From Bacteroidales bacterium (lineage in GTDB: Bacteria; Bacteroidota; Bacteroidia; Bacteroidales; UBA932): DNA of 64,000 nt. Below are positions 1 through 22,721 of this stretch, one piece after another. Within the stretch, counting starts at the first letter, position 1. Each line of letters starts with the position of its first letter. The notes beneath the pieces were generated by a model that worked only from the letters and a program-made list of their open reading frames with translations, was not told where the DNA came from and did no database searches. Both the position numbers and the translations under genes were made by a program. The stretch is taken from contig JAFYWC010000098.1 in assembly GCA_017546585.1 (NCBI GenBank), positions 360 through 64,359 of the forward strand. Reading direction: 5' to 3'.

Positions 1-101
1 CGGTCGCCCAAACCGCCTTAAAGCGCGGTTCTCTGCCACCGTTCGGGTGAATTACCCTCCATTTCCGCCCGAACTGTCTGCCGTGCAGATAACCGATAGA
101 G

Positions 102-195
102 TTTCCGGGACAAGAGCCCGTATCCCTCTGCCTTCGGACTCCACACCTTGTGCGAGTTTCCGTGCAAAGTGGCACAAGGTGTCCTGCAAAATGCC
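102..195. repeat. Direct repeat copy A (~94 bp) containing a 40-bp palindrome (143-182)
   Basis: TTTCCGGGACAA...TATCCCTCTGCCTTC...ACACCTTGTGC-N18-GCACAAGGTGT-CCTGCAAAA aligns by eye with 2242-2334; weaker similarity extends left to about 85 and 2225. Confidence 0.9.
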
Positions 196-225
196 TTTTA
201 AGTTATTATTAGGGGTAACAAAATA

Positions 226-2142
226 TTACAAAATCTCTACATCTTCCCAACCAGGAATCGCAGTGTTAGAGATGGTCTTGGTATTTGTTCCTCCGAAGAT
301 TCTGCTGAATTCACTAAGGTATACATCTGCAATCCTTCTGTTTGAATTGCCGGTTTCATCACTAGATGGGTGAACATCATCTGTGCAGAATGTGCTCCAA
401 TCTCCTATGTCGCCAATCGTATTATAGACATTCACGATATCTAAGTCCCAGATGTTTGCAACAGCTTGATTGTAGTACAATAATGTGGCTGTGAGATTAA
501 AGTCAGATCGATACAGACCAGTGCTAGACATTGCCTGACGTACCCAAGGACTATCAAGAGCGAAATAATTACCAATTATTATTTTGGCATTTGGATTAGC
601 CTTATTTATAGCATTAATTATCCTTTCCATACACATCAAATAACTTCCTTCTTCTGAAAGTCCTTGAGTGTTTGTGATTGTTGGGACATATGATGAGTTG
701 TAATTTTCTTTATTTAGAGCTAAAAGGTTTGTTGCTCCATATATACCAATTTCAAAATCATAGGATGTAGAAATGTAATATCCTGCTTCCCAAAGCATAC
801 CGAAAACTCCATTTACACCCCATAAGTCATTAAATCCGTGGTCTATAACGATGGTTTGACAATTGTCAAGTGTGCCGTCAATATAGGGTATAATTAATGA
901 CTCATATGACAAGGACTGAACTGCTGAAATCTGTTCATTTACCCATTGTTCGCCCTTCCCATCTTCATCTTTGTATCTTGTCATTAGTCGCTCTCTGTAG
1001 ATTTGCTCTGCTTCTTGTTTTGTCTGTGATAGGCCTCCGCCTTTTTTATAATCCCAATTCTGAATCAGCCAATCCATCGCATCATATCCACCAGGAAATG
1101 GCTCGGGAATTCTAAGCACTTGTGTGGCTGCAATAGAATTATTAACAACTTCAAGTCCAGTTGCGTTAGATATCATCTGCGGATAGTTGTTTGTTTGGGA
1201 ACCGGCAGGGATAGATGTGCCCACCCATAAGATCTTGCCACCGGGGACGTTTTTCGTCCAGGCGTTTTCGGTGGAAAGGCTTGACGCAGCGACGCCGTCC
1301 GCAGATACTTTGATTTTCAGCTTGTAGCGCTTGCCGCCTTTGAATGTTATTCCATTGCTCGCGAAATATAGCGGTTCGAATGTCTTCGGGGTGCCGTTCA
1401 CGTTCGCGGTGACAACGAGGCTTGGCCTATTGCTGCTTGTCGATGTATACGGATGGAAAATTGCCTCTGCTGTATTGATTCCATACTGGACGCCCGCATT
1501 CATATACATATCAATCTGCTCATTGTTCGGAGCGGCTGCGCTTATGTGTGACATCGTCTCATAGCTGAATACGCCGCCCATCGAGACATTCTTCAGCTTG
1601 ATGGATGTCACGGAAACATTCTCCCCGGCTTCATAAATCACCTGGATCTTGGCCATCAGATGGCTGAAGCACACGTCTATGTGGTCGCCCTGGATGGTTA
1701 TGCCATTGTCTGTGCTTGCGCCAAGTATATCGTTGCTGATGAATTTCTCATCGGTTGTCTGGTCGCTTGAGATAATGATGGCTAATTCATTGTTCTTGTC
1801 GAGTGCGGTTCCGGCAGGAACTGTCAATGCTTTTACCTGCACATTGCTGTGGTCGTTGCTGGCCCAGCGGATTTCTCTGATGTCTGTTTTGTATGTATTG
1901 CTGTCGTCAGCTTTAGTCATTGTCAGCAATGAATAATTGAAGTTCTCGTCGCCCTGATTGATGTCCATTACGAACTCGGCAGGTAGGGTAGCGGCATCAT
2001 ATCCGGCCTTGATCTGGGAGCCCACCTGAGAACTCACAGTGATGCAACCAGCCCCTTCAGGCTGTTCTGGGAGCATCTTCTCGTTGCAGGAAACGATTGA
2101 GAATATTGTGATCAGTGCAGTAAAAGTCTTGAGTAGTTTCAT
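226..2142 (-). CDS. Lipoprotein: N-terminal fimbrillin (type V pilin-like) domain fused to a C-terminal SGNH/GDSL hydrolase
   Basis: Lipobox IVSC; pilin-like N-half (ITVSSQV...IKAGY; FSHLMAKIQV; FKGGKRYKLKI); SGNH blocks ILWVGTSIP, DHGFND and DDVHP all present. Confidence 0.8.
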   Translation of the reverse strand: MKLLKTFTALITIFSIVSCNEKMLPEQPEGAGCITVSSQVGSQIKAGYDAATLPAEFVMDINQGDENFNYSLLTMTKADDSNTYKTDIREIRWASNDHSNVQVKALTVPAGTALDKNNELAIIISSDQTTDEKFISNDILGASTDNGITIQGDHIDVCFSHLMAKIQVIYEAGENVSVTSIKLKNVSMGGVFSYETMSHISAAAPNNEQIDMYMNAGVQYGINTAEAIFHPYTSTSSNRPSLVVTANVNGTPKTFEPLYFASNGITFKGGKRYKLKIKVSADGVAASSLSTENAWTKNVPGGKILWVGTSIPAGSQTNNYPQMISNATGLEVVNNSIAATQVLRIPEPFPGGYDAMDWLIQNWDYKKGGGLSQTKQEAEQIYRERLMTRYKDEDGKGEQWVNEQISAVQSLSYESLIIPYIDGTLDNCQTIVIDHGFNDLWGVNGVFGMLWEAGYYISTSYDFEIGIYGATNLLALNKENYNSSYVPTITNTQGLSEEGSYLMCMERIINAINKANPNAKIIIGNYFALDSPWVRQAMSSTGLYRSDFNLTATLLYYNQAVANIWDLDIVNVYNTIGDIGDWSTFCTDDVHPSSDETGNSNRRIADVYLSEFSRIFGGTNTKTISNTAIPGWEDVEIL

Positions 2143-2164
2143 ATTTTGCGAATCAATATCCGCA

Positions 2165-2172
2165 CAAATTTA
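2165..2172 (-). promoter_or_regulatory. Bacteroidota -7 promoter element for the pilin-SGNH gene
   Basis: TAAATTTG on the minus strand matches TAnnTTTG, ending 22 nt before the ATG. Confidence 0.6.
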
Positions 2173-2241
2173 GTGGTTTTTGGTGAATTTACCGTGTGAG
2201 AGTTGGAGGTGGATAGGATAGGAAGCGGATACCCGGCAGAC

Positions 2242-2334
2242 TTTCCGGGACAAACCCCGTATCCCTCTGCCTTCAGGTTCCACACCTTGTGCGAGTATTC
2301 CTGCATATAGGCACAAGCTGTCCTGCAAAACGCC
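2242..2334. repeat. Direct repeat copy B containing a 40-bp palindrome (2282-2321)
   Basis: Same orientation as 102-195; arms ACACCTTGTGC / GCACAAGCTGT (one mismatch) around an 18-nt spacer. Confidence 0.9.
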
Positions 2335-2355
2335 GTTTTGATGTAGTTTTACACT

Positions 2356-2395
2356 ACACCTTTGGCGACTTTTGCCCTATAGGCGCCAAAGGTGT
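2356..2395. repeat. Third 40-bp ACACCTT...AAGGTGT palindrome
   Basis: Perfect 12-bp arms ACACCTTTGGCG / CGCCAAAGGTGT with a 16-nt loop; same total length and terminal heptamer as the other two. Confidence 0.85.
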
Positions 2396-2442
2396 TCGCT
2401 ACTGCTGTTCGGCCTCTTCCCAGCCGAGGCTGTATGCATAAC

Positions 2443-2485
2443 ACAAAAGACCCCTGCGACAGAATGTGGATTCTTGTCACAGGGT
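2443..2485 (-). terminator. Intrinsic terminator downstream of rubredoxin
   Basis: On the minus strand, hairpin ACCCTGTGACA...TGTCGCAGGGGT followed by CTTTTGT. Confidence 0.65.
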
Positions 2486-2529
2486 ATGTGCGATATGAAA
2501 TTAAGCAAATAGCGGCTACGCCGCCTGTT

Positions 2530-2694
2530 TTATCCGTTCCACTTCTCGAAGTGCTCCTTTCCGACGCCGCAGGCCGGGCAGGTCCAGTCTTCGGGGATGT
2601 CTTCGAATGCCGTTCCCGGAGCAATGCCACTTTCCGGATCTCCCTCTGCCGGATCATAGATGTATCCGCAGACGATGCAAATGTACTTTTCCAT
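2530..2694 (-). CDS. Rubredoxin (54 aa, not in the ORF track)
   Basis: Hand translation [54 protein letters not shown]; canonical CxxCG...WxCPxCG rubredoxin pattern. Confidence 0.97.
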
Positions 2695-2966
2695 ATAACA
2701 ATGTGTCTATAAGTCGTTCGGGGATTGGGTATCAATATTTGTACCGACGGATGGATTGCGTAAATAATAAAATATTTGCCAATGCTACTTTATTATTGGA
2801 CACTATATACAAGTTTGTACTTAATGTAGCATCTTAGGCTTTAAATGGTATAGGTGTAAACTAGACTAGGGTATGTGAGAAGCGCTCATTTGTGAGATGT
2901 AAATCCTATATACCTTGAGCGACTTTAAGTCAAACCTAAGGTGTGAACTGATATATCATTCCATTA

Positions 2967-3413
2967 CTATCTTGGTGTAGTTAAATGAATTCTTATATTT
3001 TTAAGCAGTTCATCCAAAGATAATATTGGCAGATTAAGTCCTTGAATAGGTGTATTTTTTTCATATACATATAGAGCTCCTCTCATGAAACCAACAGCGA
3101 TATCTAGCATGTACTTTACTTCCTCCTCTTTAGCGACCTCTTGTGGAGTCAAAGATTCAACTTTCTGCCCCCAACTATCAATTTTAAAAGCCAAGGTGAC
3201 ATCGTAAGAAAGTACTTGATCTTCTTTTGATTTTATTATAAGATAGAACTTTACTTGAACTATATCTAGTCCTTTTGCATAAAACAATTCCGAGCGGACT
3301 CCTAGAGATAAATCTTTCTTAATCTCAGTAGATTGTATATCTATGGTCCTATTGTAGGTAAAAGGACTTTCAATAGCATTTATGAAGATTATTTTGTCCA
3401 TAATATTATCCAA
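2967..3413 (-). CDS. SecB-like chaperone (putative CmdC-type TAC chaperone)
   Basis: 148 aa; beta-rich middle and C-terminal GFMRGAL...TPIQGLNLPILSLDELL, resembling the SecB-fold terminal helix + LP motif; last gene of a coupled trio. Confidence 0.65.
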   Translation of the reverse strand: MDNIMDKIIFINAIESPFTYNRTIDIQSTEIKKDLSLGVRSELFYAKGLDIVQVKFYLIIKSKEDQVLSYDVTLAFKIDSWGQKVESLTPQEVAKEEEVKYMLDIAVGFMRGALYVYEKNTPIQGLNLPILSLDELLKNIRIHLTTPR

Positions 3414-3786
3414 TTTGGTTTATATAGTACATAAGTGACGATTGCTGGATGCAAAATTCAGAATCAAACATGTCGTCATCTAAGTCAATATGCTCTGTTA
3501 AATCGCATCTTCCTAAACATGTTATAGTCCCATCCATACCTTTTTTTCTATGCCACAAGAACCTTTCTGAAGAAATTTGAGAAAGATATCTTAAACCAAC
3601 ACTTTGTTGCATATAGTTCAAAACCATGTCTTTAGTAACTCTCAGTAATAAGGAACTAAAGTAATGCGGTTCGGAACACTCTTGCTGTATTGCAATATAA
3701 AGGATACTGCTTGCATCATCTACATATAGTGATGCATATGGACTACCATAGTCTTGTAGTACCCCTAAAAGTTTAAGGTGCATCAT
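3406..3786 (-). CDS. Putative antitoxin (CmdA / DUF6575-like)
   Basis: 126 aa; middle gene overlapping its neighbours by 14 and 8 bp; DYGSPYASLY start and acidic C-terminal tail. Assignment is mainly positional. Confidence 0.45.
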   Translation of the reverse strand: MMHLKLLGVLQDYGSPYASLYVDDASSILYIAIQQECSEPHYFSSLLLRVTKDMVLNYMQQSVGLRYLSQISSERFLWHRKKGMDGTITCLGRCDLTEHIDLDDDMFDSEFCIQQSSLMYYINQIG

Positions 3787-4372
3787 AACTGTCGATTTTT
3801 ATTGGTATATAATCCTTGTCAATTAGAGAAACAACATCTACACCAGAGTAAATATATACTTGCTTATGTACCGCATCCTCCGATGGCCCTATCAATCCAC
3901 AGTCTTTGGTGTAATTTATTTTAGCGATATAATCTCCCTTTGACGTAATCCATTTATTAATAGCCCCTTGTCTTTTTTCAGGTGACTTTGCCTTCGATAA
4001 ATTCTTATTTAAATTACGATGCCATTCATTAATTGCATCTTGCTCAGTTATAAAATGTGAAAGTGTAAACCATTTAGTATATTCATCTATAACTTCTTTT
4101 GGAGCACCTTCCTGAGGTCTCTTCAAGGTATCTGGACTATTGGGATTGCTTTCTTGAAATATTTGTGGCTTAAAATCATCTTCAATATAAGGTTGATGTA
4201 CCCATCTGTACAGAGATATATCTTGTGGTTTATTATCACTTTCTATAGCAGATAAGAAGGGCTCAAGATAATCATGATAAGCTAGCACTAGTCCATTCTT
4301 ATTTTGTTTCTTTCTCTTAGCCTTTCTTTTAAGTTTTGCCTTTCGTATCTTTTGTCGTTTCTTCTTAATCAT
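3773..4372 (-). CDS. Putative ADP-ribosyltransferase-fold toxin (CmdT-like)
   Basis: Motifs LYRWV...DFKP...TLSHF(I)TEQDA resemble ART strands 1/2; first gene of a toxin-antitoxin-SecB order; highly basic N-terminus. Confidence 0.5.
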   Translation of the reverse strand: MIKKKRQKIRKAKLKRKAKRKKQNKNGLVLAYHDYLEPFLSAIESDNKPQDISLYRWVHQPYIEDDFKPQIFQESNPNSPDTLKRPQEGAPKEVIDEYTKWFTLSHFITEQDAINEWHRNLNKNLSKAKSPEKRQGAINKWITSKGDYIAKINYTKDCGLIGPSEDAVHKQVYIYSGVDVVSLIDKDYIPIKIDSYDAP

Positions 4373-4393
4373 TATATCTTTCTTAAGAATTTA

Positions 4394-4401
4394 CAAAAAT
4401 A
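4394..4401 (-). promoter_or_regulatory. -7 promoter element for the TAC-like operon
   Basis: TATTTTTG on the minus strand, ending 21 nt before the toxin ATG. Confidence 0.5.
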
Positions 4402-4530
4402 GTAAAATTTTGACAGTTTCATTAACTATTGTCATCTTCTTTTTGATCAGTTCTATGATCCATTGTATAACATCATGCATCAAAACGTTCAGAGATTCAA
4501 AGGTTACTCGGTATTTTGCATATATTTCAC

Positions 4531-5852
4531 CACTAGTGTCCAATAAAATTTAAAACTTAAACTCAAATTGAAGTTGAACAGTCTCATCATCCGCATCCTC
4601 GATAGTTTCAGAGCCTTTGAAAAGGTCTCTGATGGAGGTCTTGTCGGTCAGGACTCTGCTCAGTACTCGGAGGACATTGAACGTTGTTCTTCCAAGCTGG
4701 CAGTCGTGCTCGACGATGGCCACGAGGCAGTATGTGATGACTGCAACATATATCTGTATTCTCACAGCGTTCTCGCTGGTTCCCCAAAAGGAGAGCACAC
4801 GAAGATGCTGTTTTATCCACCTGAAGAACAGTTCCACCTGCCATCTCTGCTTGTAGAGCATTGCAATATCCTTAGCCTTGATCGTAAAGTCATTAGTAAG
4901 GAATGTGAACGTCCTCTTCAGTTCAGGAGCATAGTAAACTATCCTCCTCAGCTCGGATGGGTATTTGGTTTTTGTCAACTGACCAGTCAGTCTTATGGTC
5001 TGATCAAGCAGCACATTGTCATCCCCATCCAACAGTTCATCTCCAGCCACAACTTCGTACTTGAGATGATCCTTCGCTCGGATGATAAACATAGAACCGA
5101 TGCTCTGGATTCTATACAATCTGGCAAGGTCATAGTATCCTTTGTCAAAGATATAGAACGCATTAGGCTCGTAAGGTATCTCATCCATTGCATTCACGTC
5201 ATGAAGTTTCGCTTCAGTAATGTGAATGTAGGTAGGAATCTGAGTGACCACATCAAACAAGGTGTGCACCTTGATTCCGCTCTTGGTTTTGCGGAAGTAT
5301 GCCCACTCGAACAGACTCATGCAGAGATCTATCGTCGTCGAATTGAACGCGTAGAACTTGCCATTGAGAACGAACGACCTTGTGATTCTCTTGCTCTGAG
5401 CAAGGTTGATCATATGGTAGGCAAACTCCTCAAATATCTTGTAATCTCGGTTGGCGTTAGCATAGGACAGATTGCTCAGCTTTATGTCACCGCTACCGAA
5501 ACCGAGATGGTAGCTCTTACTCTTGATGGCGTCAATGATTGCCGCAACTTCTCTGAGACTGTCACAGCCTGCGAGTTGTCCGAACATCATGACAAGAAGT
5601 TGATTCCAACAGGTGAAATGCTTCACCCACTTATCACCTTCGTATCTCTTTACGATACCATCAAAGACTCTTTTAGGAAGAAAACTAACGAGTTGACTGA
5701 ATATGTATTTGCCTGCATTCATGCTTGTCCGATCTAATGTCGGCAGCAAATATGCGAAATCAATTCAAATCGACACGCGGTGTTTTCTGTTGTATTTAAT
5801 TATATATTAATAAGTTACAAAGGTTTGTCAAAAAATCTTTTGGACACTAGTG
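4531..5852 (-). mobile_element. IS4-family insertion sequence
   Basis: Perfect 13-bp terminal inverted repeats CACTAGTGTCCAA (4531-4543) / TTGGACACTAGTG (5840-5852) enclosing the transposase; no target duplication visible. Confidence 0.9.
4550..5722 (-). CDS. IS4-family DDE transposase (DUF4372 N-terminus), first catalytic Asp replaced by Asn
   Basis: Likely start MNAGKYIFSQL (ATG 5722); motifs YAFNSTTIDL (family usually DSTTI), FDKGY and YKQRWQVELFF. Confidence 0.9.
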   Translation of the reverse strand: MNAGKYIFSQLVSFLPKRVFDGIVKRYEGDKWVKHFTCWNQLLVMMFGQLAGCDSLREVAAIIDAIKSKSYHLGFGSGDIKLSNLSYANANRDYKIFEEFAYHMINLAQSKRITRSFVLNGKFYAFNSTTIDLCMSLFEWAYFRKTKSGIKVHTLFDVVTQIPTYIHITEAKLHDVNAMDEIPYEPNAFYIFDKGYYDLARLYRIQSIGSMFIIRAKDHLKYEVVAGDELLDGDDNVLLDQTIRLTGQLTKTKYPSELRRIVYYAPELKRTFTFLTNDFTIKAKDIAMLYKQRWQVELFFRWIKQHLRVLSFWGTSENAVRIQIYVAVITYCLVAIVEHDCQLGRTTFNVLRVLSRVLTDKTSIRDLFKGSETIEDADDETVQLQFEFKF

Positions 5853-5898
5853 AAATTTATTATATATTTGCTAAAAGCAACAATTAACGAGATTGCCC

Positions 5899-6120
5899 AT
5901 GAAACCAATTATTCAAAAAGTGTCCTTTTATCCATTCTCGTACTCTCAACTACCTAGGAAAGGATTTTATGCTATCATGCGTTATAATACAGTCCTTCAC
6001 AAATGGGTTATAATAGGAAAACAATATGGTATGGAAATTGACATCATTCAATATGTTCGAGAATTGAATGAGGATGCTGGATTAATCACTGAAGATTTCA
6101 TTGTTGGATACGAAGAGTAG
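5899..6120 (+). CDS. Hypothetical protein (73 aa)
   Basis: ATG at 5899 preceded by TATATTTG (5863-5870); no recognisable family. Confidence 0.45.
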   Translation: MKPIIQKVSFYPFSYSQLPRKGFYAIMRYNTVLHKWVIIGKQYGMEIDIIQYVRELNEDAGLITEDFIVGYEE

Positions 6121-6265
6121 CATTTTTACTGGAAGGGATTATGTCTTCCCCGCATTTTCCACATTCAATACTGAGGTGGTTCAATTCCATTATGTGTAAT
6201 GGAAGTAATTCACCTGTTATAAATTCAAATCCACAATGGGGGCATTTTATAGAAAAACAGTTCAT
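6098..6265 (-). CDS. Small Zn-ribbon protein (55 aa, not in the ORF track)
   Basis: Hand translation MNCFSIKCPHCGFEFITGELLPLHIMELNHLSIECGKCGEDIIPSSKNATLRIQQ*; two CxxC motifs and an AT-rich leader. Confidence 0.6.
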   Translation of the reverse strand: MNCFSIKCPHCGFEFITGELLPLHIMELNHLSIECGKCGEDIIPSSKNATLRIQQ

Positions 6266-6287
6266 AATTTTTAGTCTTTATACATAA

Positions 6288-7315
6288 ATATACCATTAAA
6301 CTAAAATATAGTCAATCTATTACATAATTTAAGCAACTAATTTAACAACCTTTACATCGGTATAAGATACAATACCTATGGACTTACAGAACATATCAGC
6401 GAAGCGAGTGGATTCACTCGCTTTTCTTGTATTATAACGGTACACAGCCTCGTCAATGTACCTCTGAAGGTAGTCCTTGCTAACGAAATGATATGTACCA
6501 AAAACCATACGCTTGAAATGACCCCAAAAACCCTCAATGCTATTGGTTGTGATACCATCCTTGGAGAACTCCTTCTTGCCGTGCTCAATGACACTATGCT
6601 TCATTCCCGCTCCGTCAAGGCAAATGTATGAAGACAACTCGTCTGTGAAGAAATGAGAGTTTTCAGCACAGAACTGCTTGATGATTGGAAGCAAGGTGGA
6701 TGCTTTGGTATCGGTTACCTTGATAGCATGAACGAGACCATCACGCTGAACCATTCCGAAGATTGGAGTCTTAGTTTTGGTTGAACGACCCTGTGTACCC
6801 TCAGTCTTCTTAGACTGATGCTTGTTGGTTTCTCTACCACCAAGGTACATTTCGTCTAACTCAATCTCACCTTCAAGAGCAGGTGTATCGTACTGAGCGA
6901 AAAGGGTACGAACCTTCTGCAAGATGAACCACGCTGTTTTCTGCGTTACATCAAGGTCACGTGATAACTGGTGTGAAGGTATGCCCTTCTTGTGAGAAGA
7001 GATAAGGTACATCGCCATAAACCACTTTTGAAGTGGGAGTTTTGTATTGTGGAAGATTGTACCCACAAGACAAGAGAAACGCTTCTTGCAATCAGCACAT
7101 TTGAACTGATTGTCACCATTGGAGCATGCGTAAGTATGGGTGCATCCACAGAACGGACAAACCACGTTACCACCCCAACGCTGCTCAGTGATGAAATCAC
7201 GGCAACGCTTGTCAGAATTGAAATGATTGACGAGTGAAATGAGTGAATTGAAGTGGTTAAGCGTAAGTTTCATAGTAATCAGTAGGTTATCTATAATTAT
7301 ATACCAATAAACTAA
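6288..7315. repeat. 17-bp direct repeats (16/17) flanking the IS1595 transposase
   Basis: ATATACCATTAAACTAA (6288-6304) and ATATACCAATAAACTAA (7299-7315). Confidence 0.7.
6329..7273 (-). CDS. IS1595-family (ISXO2-like) transposase
   Basis: N-terminal Zn finger CPFC...CADC; IELDEMYLGG, FTDELSSY and TNSIEGFWGHFKR motifs intact. Confidence 0.95.
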   Translation of the reverse strand: MKLTLNHFNSLISLVNHFNSDKRCRDFITEQRWGGNVVCPFCGCTHTYACSNGDNQFKCADCKKRFSCLVGTIFHNTKLPLQKWFMAMYLISSHKKGIPSHQLSRDLDVTQKTAWFILQKVRTLFAQYDTPALEGEIELDEMYLGGRETNKHQSKKTEGTQGRSTKTKTPIFGMVQRDGLVHAIKVTDTKASTLLPIIKQFCAENSHFFTDELSSYICLDGAGMKHSVIEHGKKEFSKDGITTNSIEGFWGHFKRMVFGTYHFVSKDYLQRYIDEAVYRYNTRKASESTRFADMFCKSIGIVSYTDVKVVKLVA

Positions 7316-7330
7316 CCTATTGTTACCAAA

Positions 7331-7356
7331 AAGTCCAGTCTTTTTCGACTGGACTT
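7331..7356. terminator. Hairpin / probable terminator
   Basis: Perfect 10-bp arms AAGTCCAGTC / GACTGGACTT, preceded by an A-run (U-tail on the minus strand). Confidence 0.5.
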
Positions 7357-7413
7357 CAGTTATTTATGATATTTTTAGTGTAAACACGTATATCGTTCCC
7401 AAAGAATAAGTGT

Positions 7414-7824
7414 GTGGTCAATCTGCATGAAAAGCTTGTGGCTGAGCACTATCGCGGACAACGTCTTTTCAACGATGAAGTATGTCTAGATCTGGATAAA
7501 TATGAAAAGCTGGTTCATCAGAATCGGCAGAACTCATCTGTAGACTTTCTGGTCGCCCTGGAAAATGATTGGCTACTTCTTGTTGAGGCAAAACTTAAAG
7601 TTGTTTCCATCACGGCTAAATTGGCAAAGGAGATCATTGAGAAATATGATAACTCCCGCCAGCTTATTCGATGTGATTCATATGTACACGAAATCAATAG
7701 CCTTCCAATACTGCTTCGAGATACAGATTTTCAGCAGAACAGACGAAAGCTAATGACCTATCTGAATGGAAGTCCTGTCTATGCACCGATGAAAGTTAGC
7801 GAATTCAGGGAAAAATATTTTTAG
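7414..7824 (+). CDS. Hypothetical protein with a PD-(D/E)xK nuclease-like motif, possibly 5'-truncated
   Basis: SVDFLV...LLLVEAK motif; the frame is open from 7384 (TRISFPKNKC) but has no ATG, only GTG. Confidence 0.45.
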   Translation: MVNLHEKLVAEHYRGQRLFNDEVCLDLDKYEKLVHQNRQNSSVDFLVALENDWLLLVEAKLKVVSITAKLAKEIIEKYDNSRQLIRCDSYVHEINSLPILLRDTDFQQNRRKLMTYLNGSPVYAPMKVSEFREKYF

Positions 7825-8303
7825 TTTCATGATTTTTTATTCATCAACTGATATTTATATATAAACAGTCGATTATGATTGAAATATATAAAGAAAGATT
7901 CAACTTTGAATACTCTCTACAGTTGATGAATCGTATGAGAGCGTTGAAGCTTATGCCATAGTTTTGGCTGATTTCATCTAAACTATCATTTCTGATAGTG
8001 GTCTGAATAGGTAATATCTGTGAGTACGCATTTTAAAAGCTGTATGTGATATTATGTGCTGAGAATGTCATCGTCCTACCAATGTCAATTGGCAGGACGA
8101 TGAACTATTGAGTGGAGGATTCCTCTAAATAGGGATAGTCATTTGATTCATTCAATCTGAGTTAACCGGCAGACTTTCCCATATTTTCCCGATCAAACTC
8201 ATCACTTTTTATATTATCGGCTCTGGTTTCATGGCCGATTTTTCATTTTACAGTCACGTGTGGAGCCACCACTACCGTAAAGTCACGTTCCACGCGTGGA
8301 ACA

Positions 8304-8708
8304 TTAAGCAGCAAGAGCCAAACTTGGTGTTTCTCTTCGTGTGAGGCTGACCACATTTGCAGTGTGGATGTAGAAGAAGATCAGCATGATCTCTGTTGAC
8401 TTTATCCTCGTGGCTATCTTTCGCCGTCCGTAATGCTCCTTCTTAGTGCCGAACGAGTCTTCAATGGCTGTAGCTCTCACTTTGGCAAGTTCCTTCTTGG
8501 TAGCATTCTTCACCTCGTTCTTGCCTGTCCTACCTTTCTGAATGAAGGAGGTCTCAATACCATTCTCCTTGCAGAAAGTTCTGTTGCCGTTTCCGGAGTA
8601 GCTCTGGTCACCACCGATCTTTTTCGCTGGAACTCCTGTCAGCTTCTCAGGCAGAGATGCCCAATGCTTCAATCTTGTGCCCTCACTGAAGGTGGCAGAG
8701 TTTGGCAT
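8304..8708 (-). pseudogene. C-terminal remnant of an IS5-family transposase
   Basis: EGTRLKH...KKIGGDQSY...RATAIEDSFGTKKEHYG...IFFYIHTAN matches the tail of Bacteroidales IS5-type transposases; the N-terminal two-thirds are absent. Confidence 0.75.
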
Positions 8709-8889
8709 AATGGGTGAAGTTGTATATTTCCTTACAAAGGAAAGAATTAAATCAGTTTCTGCTGTTACTTTTCTGTAGGGCTTAATCTCATTTGCGCTGT
8801 TATGGAGATTCCGATAATATACTGATGCTGAGTGAGTCGCCCTTATGGATGTGTCGGAGAGGTTTTGTTAAAAAAATGATAAATTTTTC

Positions 8890-8921
8890 TTTGGTGTTTT
8901 GGTTTTTTCACTCTACCTTTG
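8890..8921 (+). promoter_or_regulatory. Bacteroidota promoter for the pilin cluster
   Basis: TTTG (8890-8893) - 20 nt - TACCTTTG (8914-8921), matching TTTG-N19-21-TAnnTTTG. Confidence 0.75.
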
Positions 8922-9037
8922 CAAATTGATATGGTTTGTTTAATCGGGCGTTTTAAAAGACAACTTTTTGAGGCGAGAGAATGAAGTCCGTAAACAGATC
9001 ACAGTGTGTTGAAAGAAATAATAAAGGAGATATAAAA

Positions 9038-22591: not shown

Positions 22592-22620
22592 TATCCGCGT
22601 AACAAAAAAGTACGCGGATA
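22592..22620. terminator. Hairpin between convergent genes
   Basis: Perfect 10-bp arms TATCCGCGTA / TACGCGGATA. Confidence 0.55.
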
Positions 22621-22721
22621 ATTTTCAAAATCTATGTTCTACGCTGCTGTAAGCCCGATTTTTCTTCAAAAATTTGTTCAACTTTTTATAAAAATCAAAC
22701 AAATTTCCAGACGCTTCAGCC

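Follow-up and report, generated by a model that had tools for sequence, protein, structure and literature searches.

A palindromic module repeated between genes points to repeat-driven, cassette-like variation at a pilin-SGNH locus of an uncultured gut Bacteroidales bacterium

We analysed a 64,000-nucleotide stretch of a metagenome-assembled genome (MAG) of a Bacteroidales bacterium (the window; G000:C45:360-64359) and concentrated on the pilin-SGNH gene near its left end. The gene lies between two same-orientation copies of a structured, palindromic module, and related strains carry different contents between such copies. From sequence comparisons, the explanation towards which we lean is that the modules are portable homology, and that recombination between copies deletes, duplicates or moves the genes between them. 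The locus is a repeat-driven, cassette-like variable region, not an integron. In the mechanism we propose, recombination between two direct copies would remove the intervening segment and leave one chimeric copy, and the reverse process or an unequal exchange would insert or duplicate a segment. The outcome would be cassette-like variation in presence, absence and order of genes among strains. We infer that exchange between copies, most likely by ordinary homologous recombination, produced the observed states, and the direction of each event is inferred likewise. The MAG (2.49 Mb, 163 contigs, 95.6% complete) is incomplete for repeats, and some copies of the element are unassembled in it.

The direct repeats of about 94 bp that an earlier note on this DNA had described (102-195 and 2242-2334) are real and fall within longer copies at 85-199 and 2225-2338, each of about 115 nt and 82-86% identical. 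A repeat search of the window resolved them into two blocks (85-113 versus 2225-2253, 83%; 117-199 versus 2256-2338, 86%), and in a whole-genome search one copy matches the other with 83% identity over 114 nt (E 4.4e-28). Used as a DNA query against 60 relatives, the repeat gave no genuine match. Enclosed by both copies are the gene (226-2142, minus strand) and the box TAAATTTG (2165-2172, minus strand), a Bacteroidetes-type -7 box by consensus match only, which marks a putative promoter. This box lies in the gene-proximal 5' region (2143-2224, minus strand), together with the stretch GGTGAATTTACC (2182-2193) of the earlier note. The patchy similarity that the same note saw further leftward exists as an 11/12-nt match, GGTGAATT(T)ACC, at 46-56 and 2182-2193. 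Since this match stands in register in our alignment A2, the repeat in its ancestral form probably extended into the following hairpin.

Read in gene sense, that is, on the minus strand of the window, a full module consists of palindrome A (40 bp), a spacer of 33 or 34 nt (sp), palindrome B (40 bp) and a hairpin T (57 nt), followed by hairpins H1 and H2. The copy upstream of the gene (M0) has A at 2395-2356 (inverted-repeat and pattern searches), the 34-nt spacer at 2355-2322 (pattern search), B at 2321-2282 (repeat and pattern searches) and T at 2281-2225 (repeat search, alignment and mapping); its A, spacer and B form a complete doublet of 114 bp. The downstream copy (M1) retains no more of the spacer than its final 17 nt (sp', AAAAGGCATTTTGCAGG in gene sense, 199-183), where alignments A1 and A2 place the left limit of the repeat and a point at which junctions recur. 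There follow B as a singlet (182-143; inverted-repeat search), T (142-85; GGATACGGG..CCCGGAAA.TCT..CCGGTTATC, from repeat and genome searches, alignment and mapping), H1 (78-35), a small hairpin CCGC..GCGG (28-13, read from the sequence and aligned in A1 and A2) and H2, which lies mostly left of the window (C45:321-364). H1, GTTCGGGCGG..CCCGAAC, was placed by mapping of repeat family D3 and includes the GGTGAATTACC of the earlier note; it is one of two tandem copies of about 43 nt each, at 73 nt spacing, that come after T upstream of Rpn genes. Between sp' and the gene lies the 3' untranslated stretch (200-225, minus strand), delimited by sequence comparison. Module components were mapped in 8 loci.

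An empty site with a single repeat, of the kind that the earlier note anticipated, is found in a related lineage (L160). There, the interval from rubredoxin to H1-H2 holds one B-T copy and no gene, where L165 and the strain type of the window (W; scaffolds L014-L018, the longer ones obtained via exact-protein look-up, and the MAG) have promoter, gene, 3' stretch and a second sp'-B-T (alignment A2). L160 is collinear with L165: the two are 96% identical between the rubredoxin stop and B, and 90% identical from T onward into H1-H2. Diagnostic columns show that its single copy is chimeric, being of the upstream type to the left of B and, from B onward, mainly of the downstream type. This copy matches the product expected of an excision, and it would equally suit a never-occupied site whose insert brought its own repeat, so that the event may have run in either direction. 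A second chimera occurs in L017. There, the module that follows the gene agrees with M1 in its first 32 diagnostic columns and with the neighbouring copy, M2, in all the others but one; the switch falls inside T. Judged by this pattern, it is an apparent product of unequal crossover or gene conversion between neighbouring copies, independent of L160. The two switch points differ (left edge of B in L160, inside T in L017), no recombinase was found and there is no fixed core, which favours homology-driven exchange over a site-specific mechanism.

Several observations weigh against an active role for the modules. The empty site is one 84-kb metagenome contig from a lineage with strongly diverged pilin genes, and L160 could show the ancestral condition, with the site never occupied, instead of the outcome of an excision. 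The mapped crossovers number only two, and all 7 contigs with an identical pilin-SGNH protein have the same layout around the gene. The flanking copies are only 82-83% identical, so that the event at the pilin-SGNH gene is old, and the repeat pair around it may be a fixed scar. These last points also speak for a broader alternative, unlikely in our view though the most credible of those considered, in which the modules are inert scars: a selfish 113-bp doublet resembling transposable elements of the miniature inverted-repeat type (MITEs) or repetitive extragenic palindromes (REPs) would have inserted repeatedly, and an ancient insertion or duplication would have left two diverged copies around a gene that is effectively fixed. 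Against it, T and H1/H2 lie outside the dispersed doublet and yet are repeated with it in the pilin locus only, and the chimeric copies in L160 and L017, together with a repeat-flanked toxin-antitoxin pair (below), show exchange on more than one occasion.

The earlier note had proposed a look for strains with a different pilin between the repeats. In other strains, module-bounded slots contain pilin-CotH, Rpn or a Gp49/HTH (helix-turn-helix) pair, and diverged pilin-SGNH alleles exist as well. In W, the order is a defence and insertion sequence (IS) island, rubredoxin, terminator, A-sp-B-T, promoter, pilin-SGNH, sp'-B-T-H1-H2-leader, Rpn1 (PDDEXK_2, E 3.5e-41), terminator-A-sp-B-T-H1-H2-ins-leader, Rpn2, terminator-A-sp-B and the sequence of contig C97. 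Three other loci (L165, L166 and L167) read A-sp-B, rubredoxin, terminator, x, sp'-B-T, promoter, pilin-SGNH and sp'-B-T-H1-H2-ins-leader, after which comes Rpn in L165 and the Gp49/HTH toxin-antitoxin pair in L166. That pair is flanked by 79% direct repeats of T, H1 and leader pieces, and a truncated Rpn gene follows. In L013 and L170, a pilin-CotH gene (893 aa) sits between rubredoxin and the module, followed by A-sp-B-T, promoter and a pilin-SGNH gene with 97.5% nucleotide identity to that of the window; in L013, Rpn-A-sp-B-rubredoxin lies upstream of pilin-CotH. L160 has fimX, a diverged pilin-SGNH gene (54% amino acid identity), a near-identical 3' stretch, sp'-B, rubredoxin, terminator, x, sp'-B-T-H1-H2-ins and an IS. 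Its copy of the gene 3' stretch (200-225 in the window) differs by 1 base, against a coding-sequence identity of only about 75%. The points at which homology between strain types is lost coincide with module edges. Exact-protein look-ups with rubredoxin and Rpn1 added no further layouts. In detail, the Gp49 (HigB-like) and HTH genes of L166 (3733-4787) stand in place of the 5' two-thirds of Rpn, use the Rpn leader and leave a truncated Rpn 3' end. The element x belongs to a second small repeat family, with two copies of the hairpin CCACGGTATTCC.GCAAA.CCGTG about 70 nt apart (L165:9660-9800, L160:10320-10465 and G000:C90:156-257), and in some strains stands upstream of B in place of palindrome A and the spacer.

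The array runs on beyond the left edge of the window, as had been suspected from the sequence. The same-strain scaffold L014 has two further module copies after two tandem Rpn genes; MAG contig C45 breaks within this tandem duplication, and C97 is its true continuation. The two Rpn/PDDEXK_2 nuclease genes (L014:12441-14975) have a 1641-bp period and are collapsed out of the MAG. A search of the MAG for PF12784 and PDDEXK_2 gave no match because the tandem Rpn genes are unassembled there. Throughout the array, module copies have the same orientation as each other and as the flanking genes. It is very improbable that the layouts differ merely through errors of metagenome assembly at repeats. M1 and M2, which are 94-98% alike over about 500 nt, did break the MAG contig; however, the B-T copies on either side of the pilin-SGNH gene are only about 83% alike and shorter than the k-mer of 141 named in the contigs, so that collapse is not expected, and each main layout other than L160 is present in 2-7 independent samples.

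The A-spacer-B doublet also occurs away from the pilin locus. It is a self-contained, dispersed element of 113±1 bp with sharp ends, in more than 20 copies. With at most 2 mismatches allowed, the doublet pattern matches the MAG on contigs C45, C97, C62, C127 and C140, and a regular-expression scan adds C161. Among the 401 genomes of the genus (G000 and 400 other members), it is present in three, namely G000, G236 (at least 6 loci) and G077 (1 locus); G236 is the MAG 'Bacteroidales bacterium RGIG7503', from water buffalo colon. The reversed doublet pattern, as a control, had 0 matches in all genomes. Elsewhere in G000, doublets lie between unrelated genes (PGK and Lgt; GH20 and DUF4988-BACON) or beside a PagL-like gene. 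The earlier note had held that its cassette would fall if the repeat were scattered genome-wide beside unrelated genes and the pilin-SGNH gene were fixed at this site in all relatives; half of this is indeed true of the palindromic core. This dispersal, the sharp ends and constant length, and the patchy distribution in the genus are what we would expect of inert scars. T, H1 and H2 are confined to the pilin locus and form no part of the dispersed doublet.

Further afield, the doublet had no match in plasmids, phages and viral contigs, nor in two JGI metagenome scans (0 matches with the doublet pattern and with the invariant B pattern), and a strict hairpin-B pattern had 0 matches among GTDB species genomes. 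A loose single-palindrome pattern was rejected as a search tool: it had 117+ matches in GTDB species genomes, almost every one a palindrome arisen by chance in an unrelated phylum, and the RGIG7503 MAG was the sole genuine case. The flanks of 20 doublet copies show no consistent target-site duplication. In one instance, the doublet and the start of a downstream lipoprotein gene are 88% identical across two species (G000:C127:19394-19506 and G236:C37:2900-3012). The upstream genes differ, which again places the doublet at a synteny break. In another, L154 (G236:C53:11631 onward), the spacer is repeated after the second palindrome, and the doublet may be part of a longer palindrome-spacer array that runs off the contig end.

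The palindromes are built of half-sites with the consensus ACACCTTKKGCGAsTTT (56 half-sites pooled). The MAG holds 18 half-sites at 7 loci, all within palindromes, and the reversed-motif control found 0. At variable positions, agreement between the two arms of a palindrome is no more frequent than between arms taken from different elements. This lack of covariation indicates that it is the sequence of the half-sites, not their base pairing, that is conserved. Such conservation points to recognition by a protein, and we consider it probable that some putative protein recognises them. In addition, junctions recur 13-17 nt before B, where the gene 3' stretch is joined to sp'-B at two genomic positions and x is also joined to sp'-B, and this leaves room for a recognised boundary.

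Such features are compatible with a more specific system, to which we give only a small chance. In it, the palindromes would be recognition sites of a dedicated recombination or nuclease protein that excises and inserts units at modules without an integrase; a protein of these uncultured ruminant Bacteroidales, possibly one of the Rpn (PD-(D/E)XK) nucleases of the array, would cut at ACACCTTKKGCGAsTTT and so reshuffle surface-protein and defence genes. The sequence-conserved half-sites, the recurrent junctions and the fixed geometry of 40 + 33 + 40 bp all suit this idea, as do the Rpn genes that the arrays of types W, L165 and L013 contain and the report that E. coli Rpn proteins promote RecA-independent recombination (PMC5350276). 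However, the two mapped crossovers lie at different places, other doublets in the genome have no nearby Rpn gene, and Rpn proteins are now seen mainly as toxin-antitoxin phage-defence proteins (bioRxiv 10.1101/2023.05.02.539157).

Machinery of known kinds was likewise sought. PF00589 has 12 matches in the MAG, none of them on C45 or C97, and there is no integrase among the called genes of L014, L165, L166 and L170. We found no attC-like core: the palindrome arms read ACACCTTKKGC/GCMMAAGGTGT, and the H1/H2 arms GTTCGGG/CCCGAAC break the RYYYAAC/GTTRRRY consensus at 2 positions, as judged by sequence. Seven weak Y1_Tnp-like open reading frames (ORFs) are present in the MAG, none near a palindrome, and isolated half-sites adjoining a transposase were not seen in the MAG, which is incomplete for repeats. 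An association with REP-associated tyrosine transposases (RAYTs) was rejected, given that G077 has a doublet and no Y1_Tnp match and G030 has weak matches and no doublet. Hence, the gene cassette proposed in the earlier note stands in part. A gene with its promoter is one of several units parted by same-orientation module copies, and an empty site exists; on the other side, dedicated machinery is lacking on these contigs and the flanking copies have diverged.

The module could also be an expression element (operator pair, 5' leader, 3' stabiliser or terminator) reused around genes, with the direct repeats as a by-product. The constant orientation of modules with their flanking genes is in keeping with this, as are the position of T just upstream of the putative pilin promoter and of the Rpn leader, and the folding of the module region, which is much better than that of shuffled sequence (z = -4.6). 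However, a scan of window positions 1-8000 against Rfam at E<=1 gave no match, the terminator scan called none at B or T, covariation of the arms is lacking, and 398 of the 401 genus genomes have no such element though the flanking gene types are common. We therefore regard an expression element as improbable.

The gene itself is a mosaic. Its product, identified by profile search and motifs, has a lipoprotein-type signal (N-terminus ending FSIVSC) and a Mfa_like_1 domain (PF13149) at residues 67-285 (E 4.3e-14; 53.6 bits versus a cut-off of 27); fimbrillin-like domain and signal together mark it, by sequence, as a predicted type V (Mfa/Fim-like) pilin. The remainder of the 638 residues includes an SGNH-like head, for which PF13472 scores 21.1 bits, below its cut-off of 32.9. 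The head has the stretches GTSIPAG, GFND and DDVHP, which look like SGNH/GDSL blocks I, III and V with their catalytic Ser, Asn and Asp-x-x-His. More than 90 full-length homologues share the pilin and SGNH architecture, which makes the fusion old. Nucleotide homology breaks near window position 1200, where GC content falls from about 50% to 33-40%. We rejected a recent fusion of pilin and esterase as the cause of the GC break, in view of these homologues, and attribute it to allele mosaicism. The alleles are indeed mosaic: at the amino acid level, P0002 is 89% identical over the stalk half but 44% over the head half, and P0004 is 40% identical over the stalk and 68% over the head. This suggests reassortment of stalk and head among pilin-enzyme fusion genes. 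Diverged pilin-SGNH alleles carry a near-identical 3' flank.

Upstream of pilin-SGNH in the window strain lies the rubredoxin gene (54 aa; 2530-2694, minus strand; PF00301, E 1.5e-25), with a 3' region (2396-2529, minus strand) that contains terminator-like hairpins according to alignment and terminator scan, and within which homology to other strain types breaks. The slot upstream of rubredoxin (window 2700-9000) holds a low-GC three-gene defence cassette, a PD-T4-10-like set next to the array, and IS4 and IS1595 transposases. The same slot in L165 (4494-9037) has a Fic protein, an AAA_15/SMC_N ATPase and 3 small ORFs. On the other side, the Rpn leader left of the window contains a perfect 37-nt palindrome, AATTTTATTTGATTTTTGTCAAAAATCAAATAAAATT (C45:209-245), whose surroundings have look-alikes of about 72% at three other places in the genome (window ~22592-22707, C7 and C30). 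Another piece of the Rpn leader matches just upstream of a Y1_Tnp-like ORF (C124:39649-39681).

These data offer a sequence-level view of how an uncultured gut Bacteroidales bacterium may vary a surface lipoprotein and its neighbouring defence genes, with a small structured module, copied between genes, as homology for loss, gain, duplication and re-ordering. The 113-bp palindromic doublets make up a previously undescribed family that is very patchily distributed and bears a protein-like recognition motif. Should a specific protein act on the doublet, the locus would represent a novel type of cassette system; otherwise, it offers a clear example from nature of repeat-mediated plasticity. As a practical warning, such modules break MAG assemblies and can confuse them.

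The closest known kinds are REP doublets and REPINs, MITEs, and the intergenic mosaic repeats of the Neisseria type that serve as recombination substrates. REPs, REPINs and bacterial interspersed mosaic elements (BIMEs) are repetitive extragenic palindromes mobilised by RAYT transposases (PMC3733652, PMC6006769). Like the elements described here, they are imperfect intergenic palindromes of 20-40 bp, often in inverted pairs at fixed spacing, with sharp ends and a patchy presence among relatives, and they come as singlets and doublets, as do the B singlet after the pilin gene and the more than 20 doublets. By contrast, we find about 7-10 loci per genome and not the tens to hundreds of REPs, no general GTAG/CGTC tag, no element-flanked RAYT gene, no covariation of arms, and longer palindromes with 17-bp half-sites. 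The definition of MITEs (terminal inverted repeats, 50-500 bp, non-coding, dispersed) describes the doublet, since A and B are inverted relatives, the length is 113 bp and the neighbours are unrelated. BrickBuilt, a composite MITE of Porphyromonas gingivalis (PMC4596501; reviewed in PMC10969869), is likewise a non-coding element of about 100 bp with inverted-repeat ends, dispersed in a member of the Bacteroidales, composite and found at assembly and synteny breaks. Unlike these elements, the doublet shows no target-site duplication, a search for a parent IS whose ends match gave none, the sequences are not similar, and mobility of the doublet would be putative. Integron cassettes resemble the array as same-orientation series of unrelated genes bounded by imperfect palindromes, whose presence and order vary among strains. 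They differ in that no IntI or attI lies nearby here, the RYYYAAC/GTTRRRY cores are missing, the pilin gene has its own promoter-like box and the crossover points are not fixed. In Neisseria, intergenic mosaic elements (NIMEs; dRS3/RS arrays), Correia elements and 'minimal mobile elements' are short units bounded by inverted repeats beside variable surface-protein genes and act as recombination substrates, and homologous recombination swaps gene units that lie between conserved flanks. Our locus differs in phylum and in sequence, in the one composite module that parts each gene and in the Rpn genes of the array. Finally, the turnover of defence islands and hotspots has its counterpart in slots with Rpn nucleases and a HigB/HigA-like pair and in the alternative defence cassettes that adjoin the array (the PD-T4-10-like set in the window strain, Fic and AAA_15 in L165); here, however, a surface lipoprotein and rubredoxin are found in slots too, and the turnover is linked to one specific module that is repeated.

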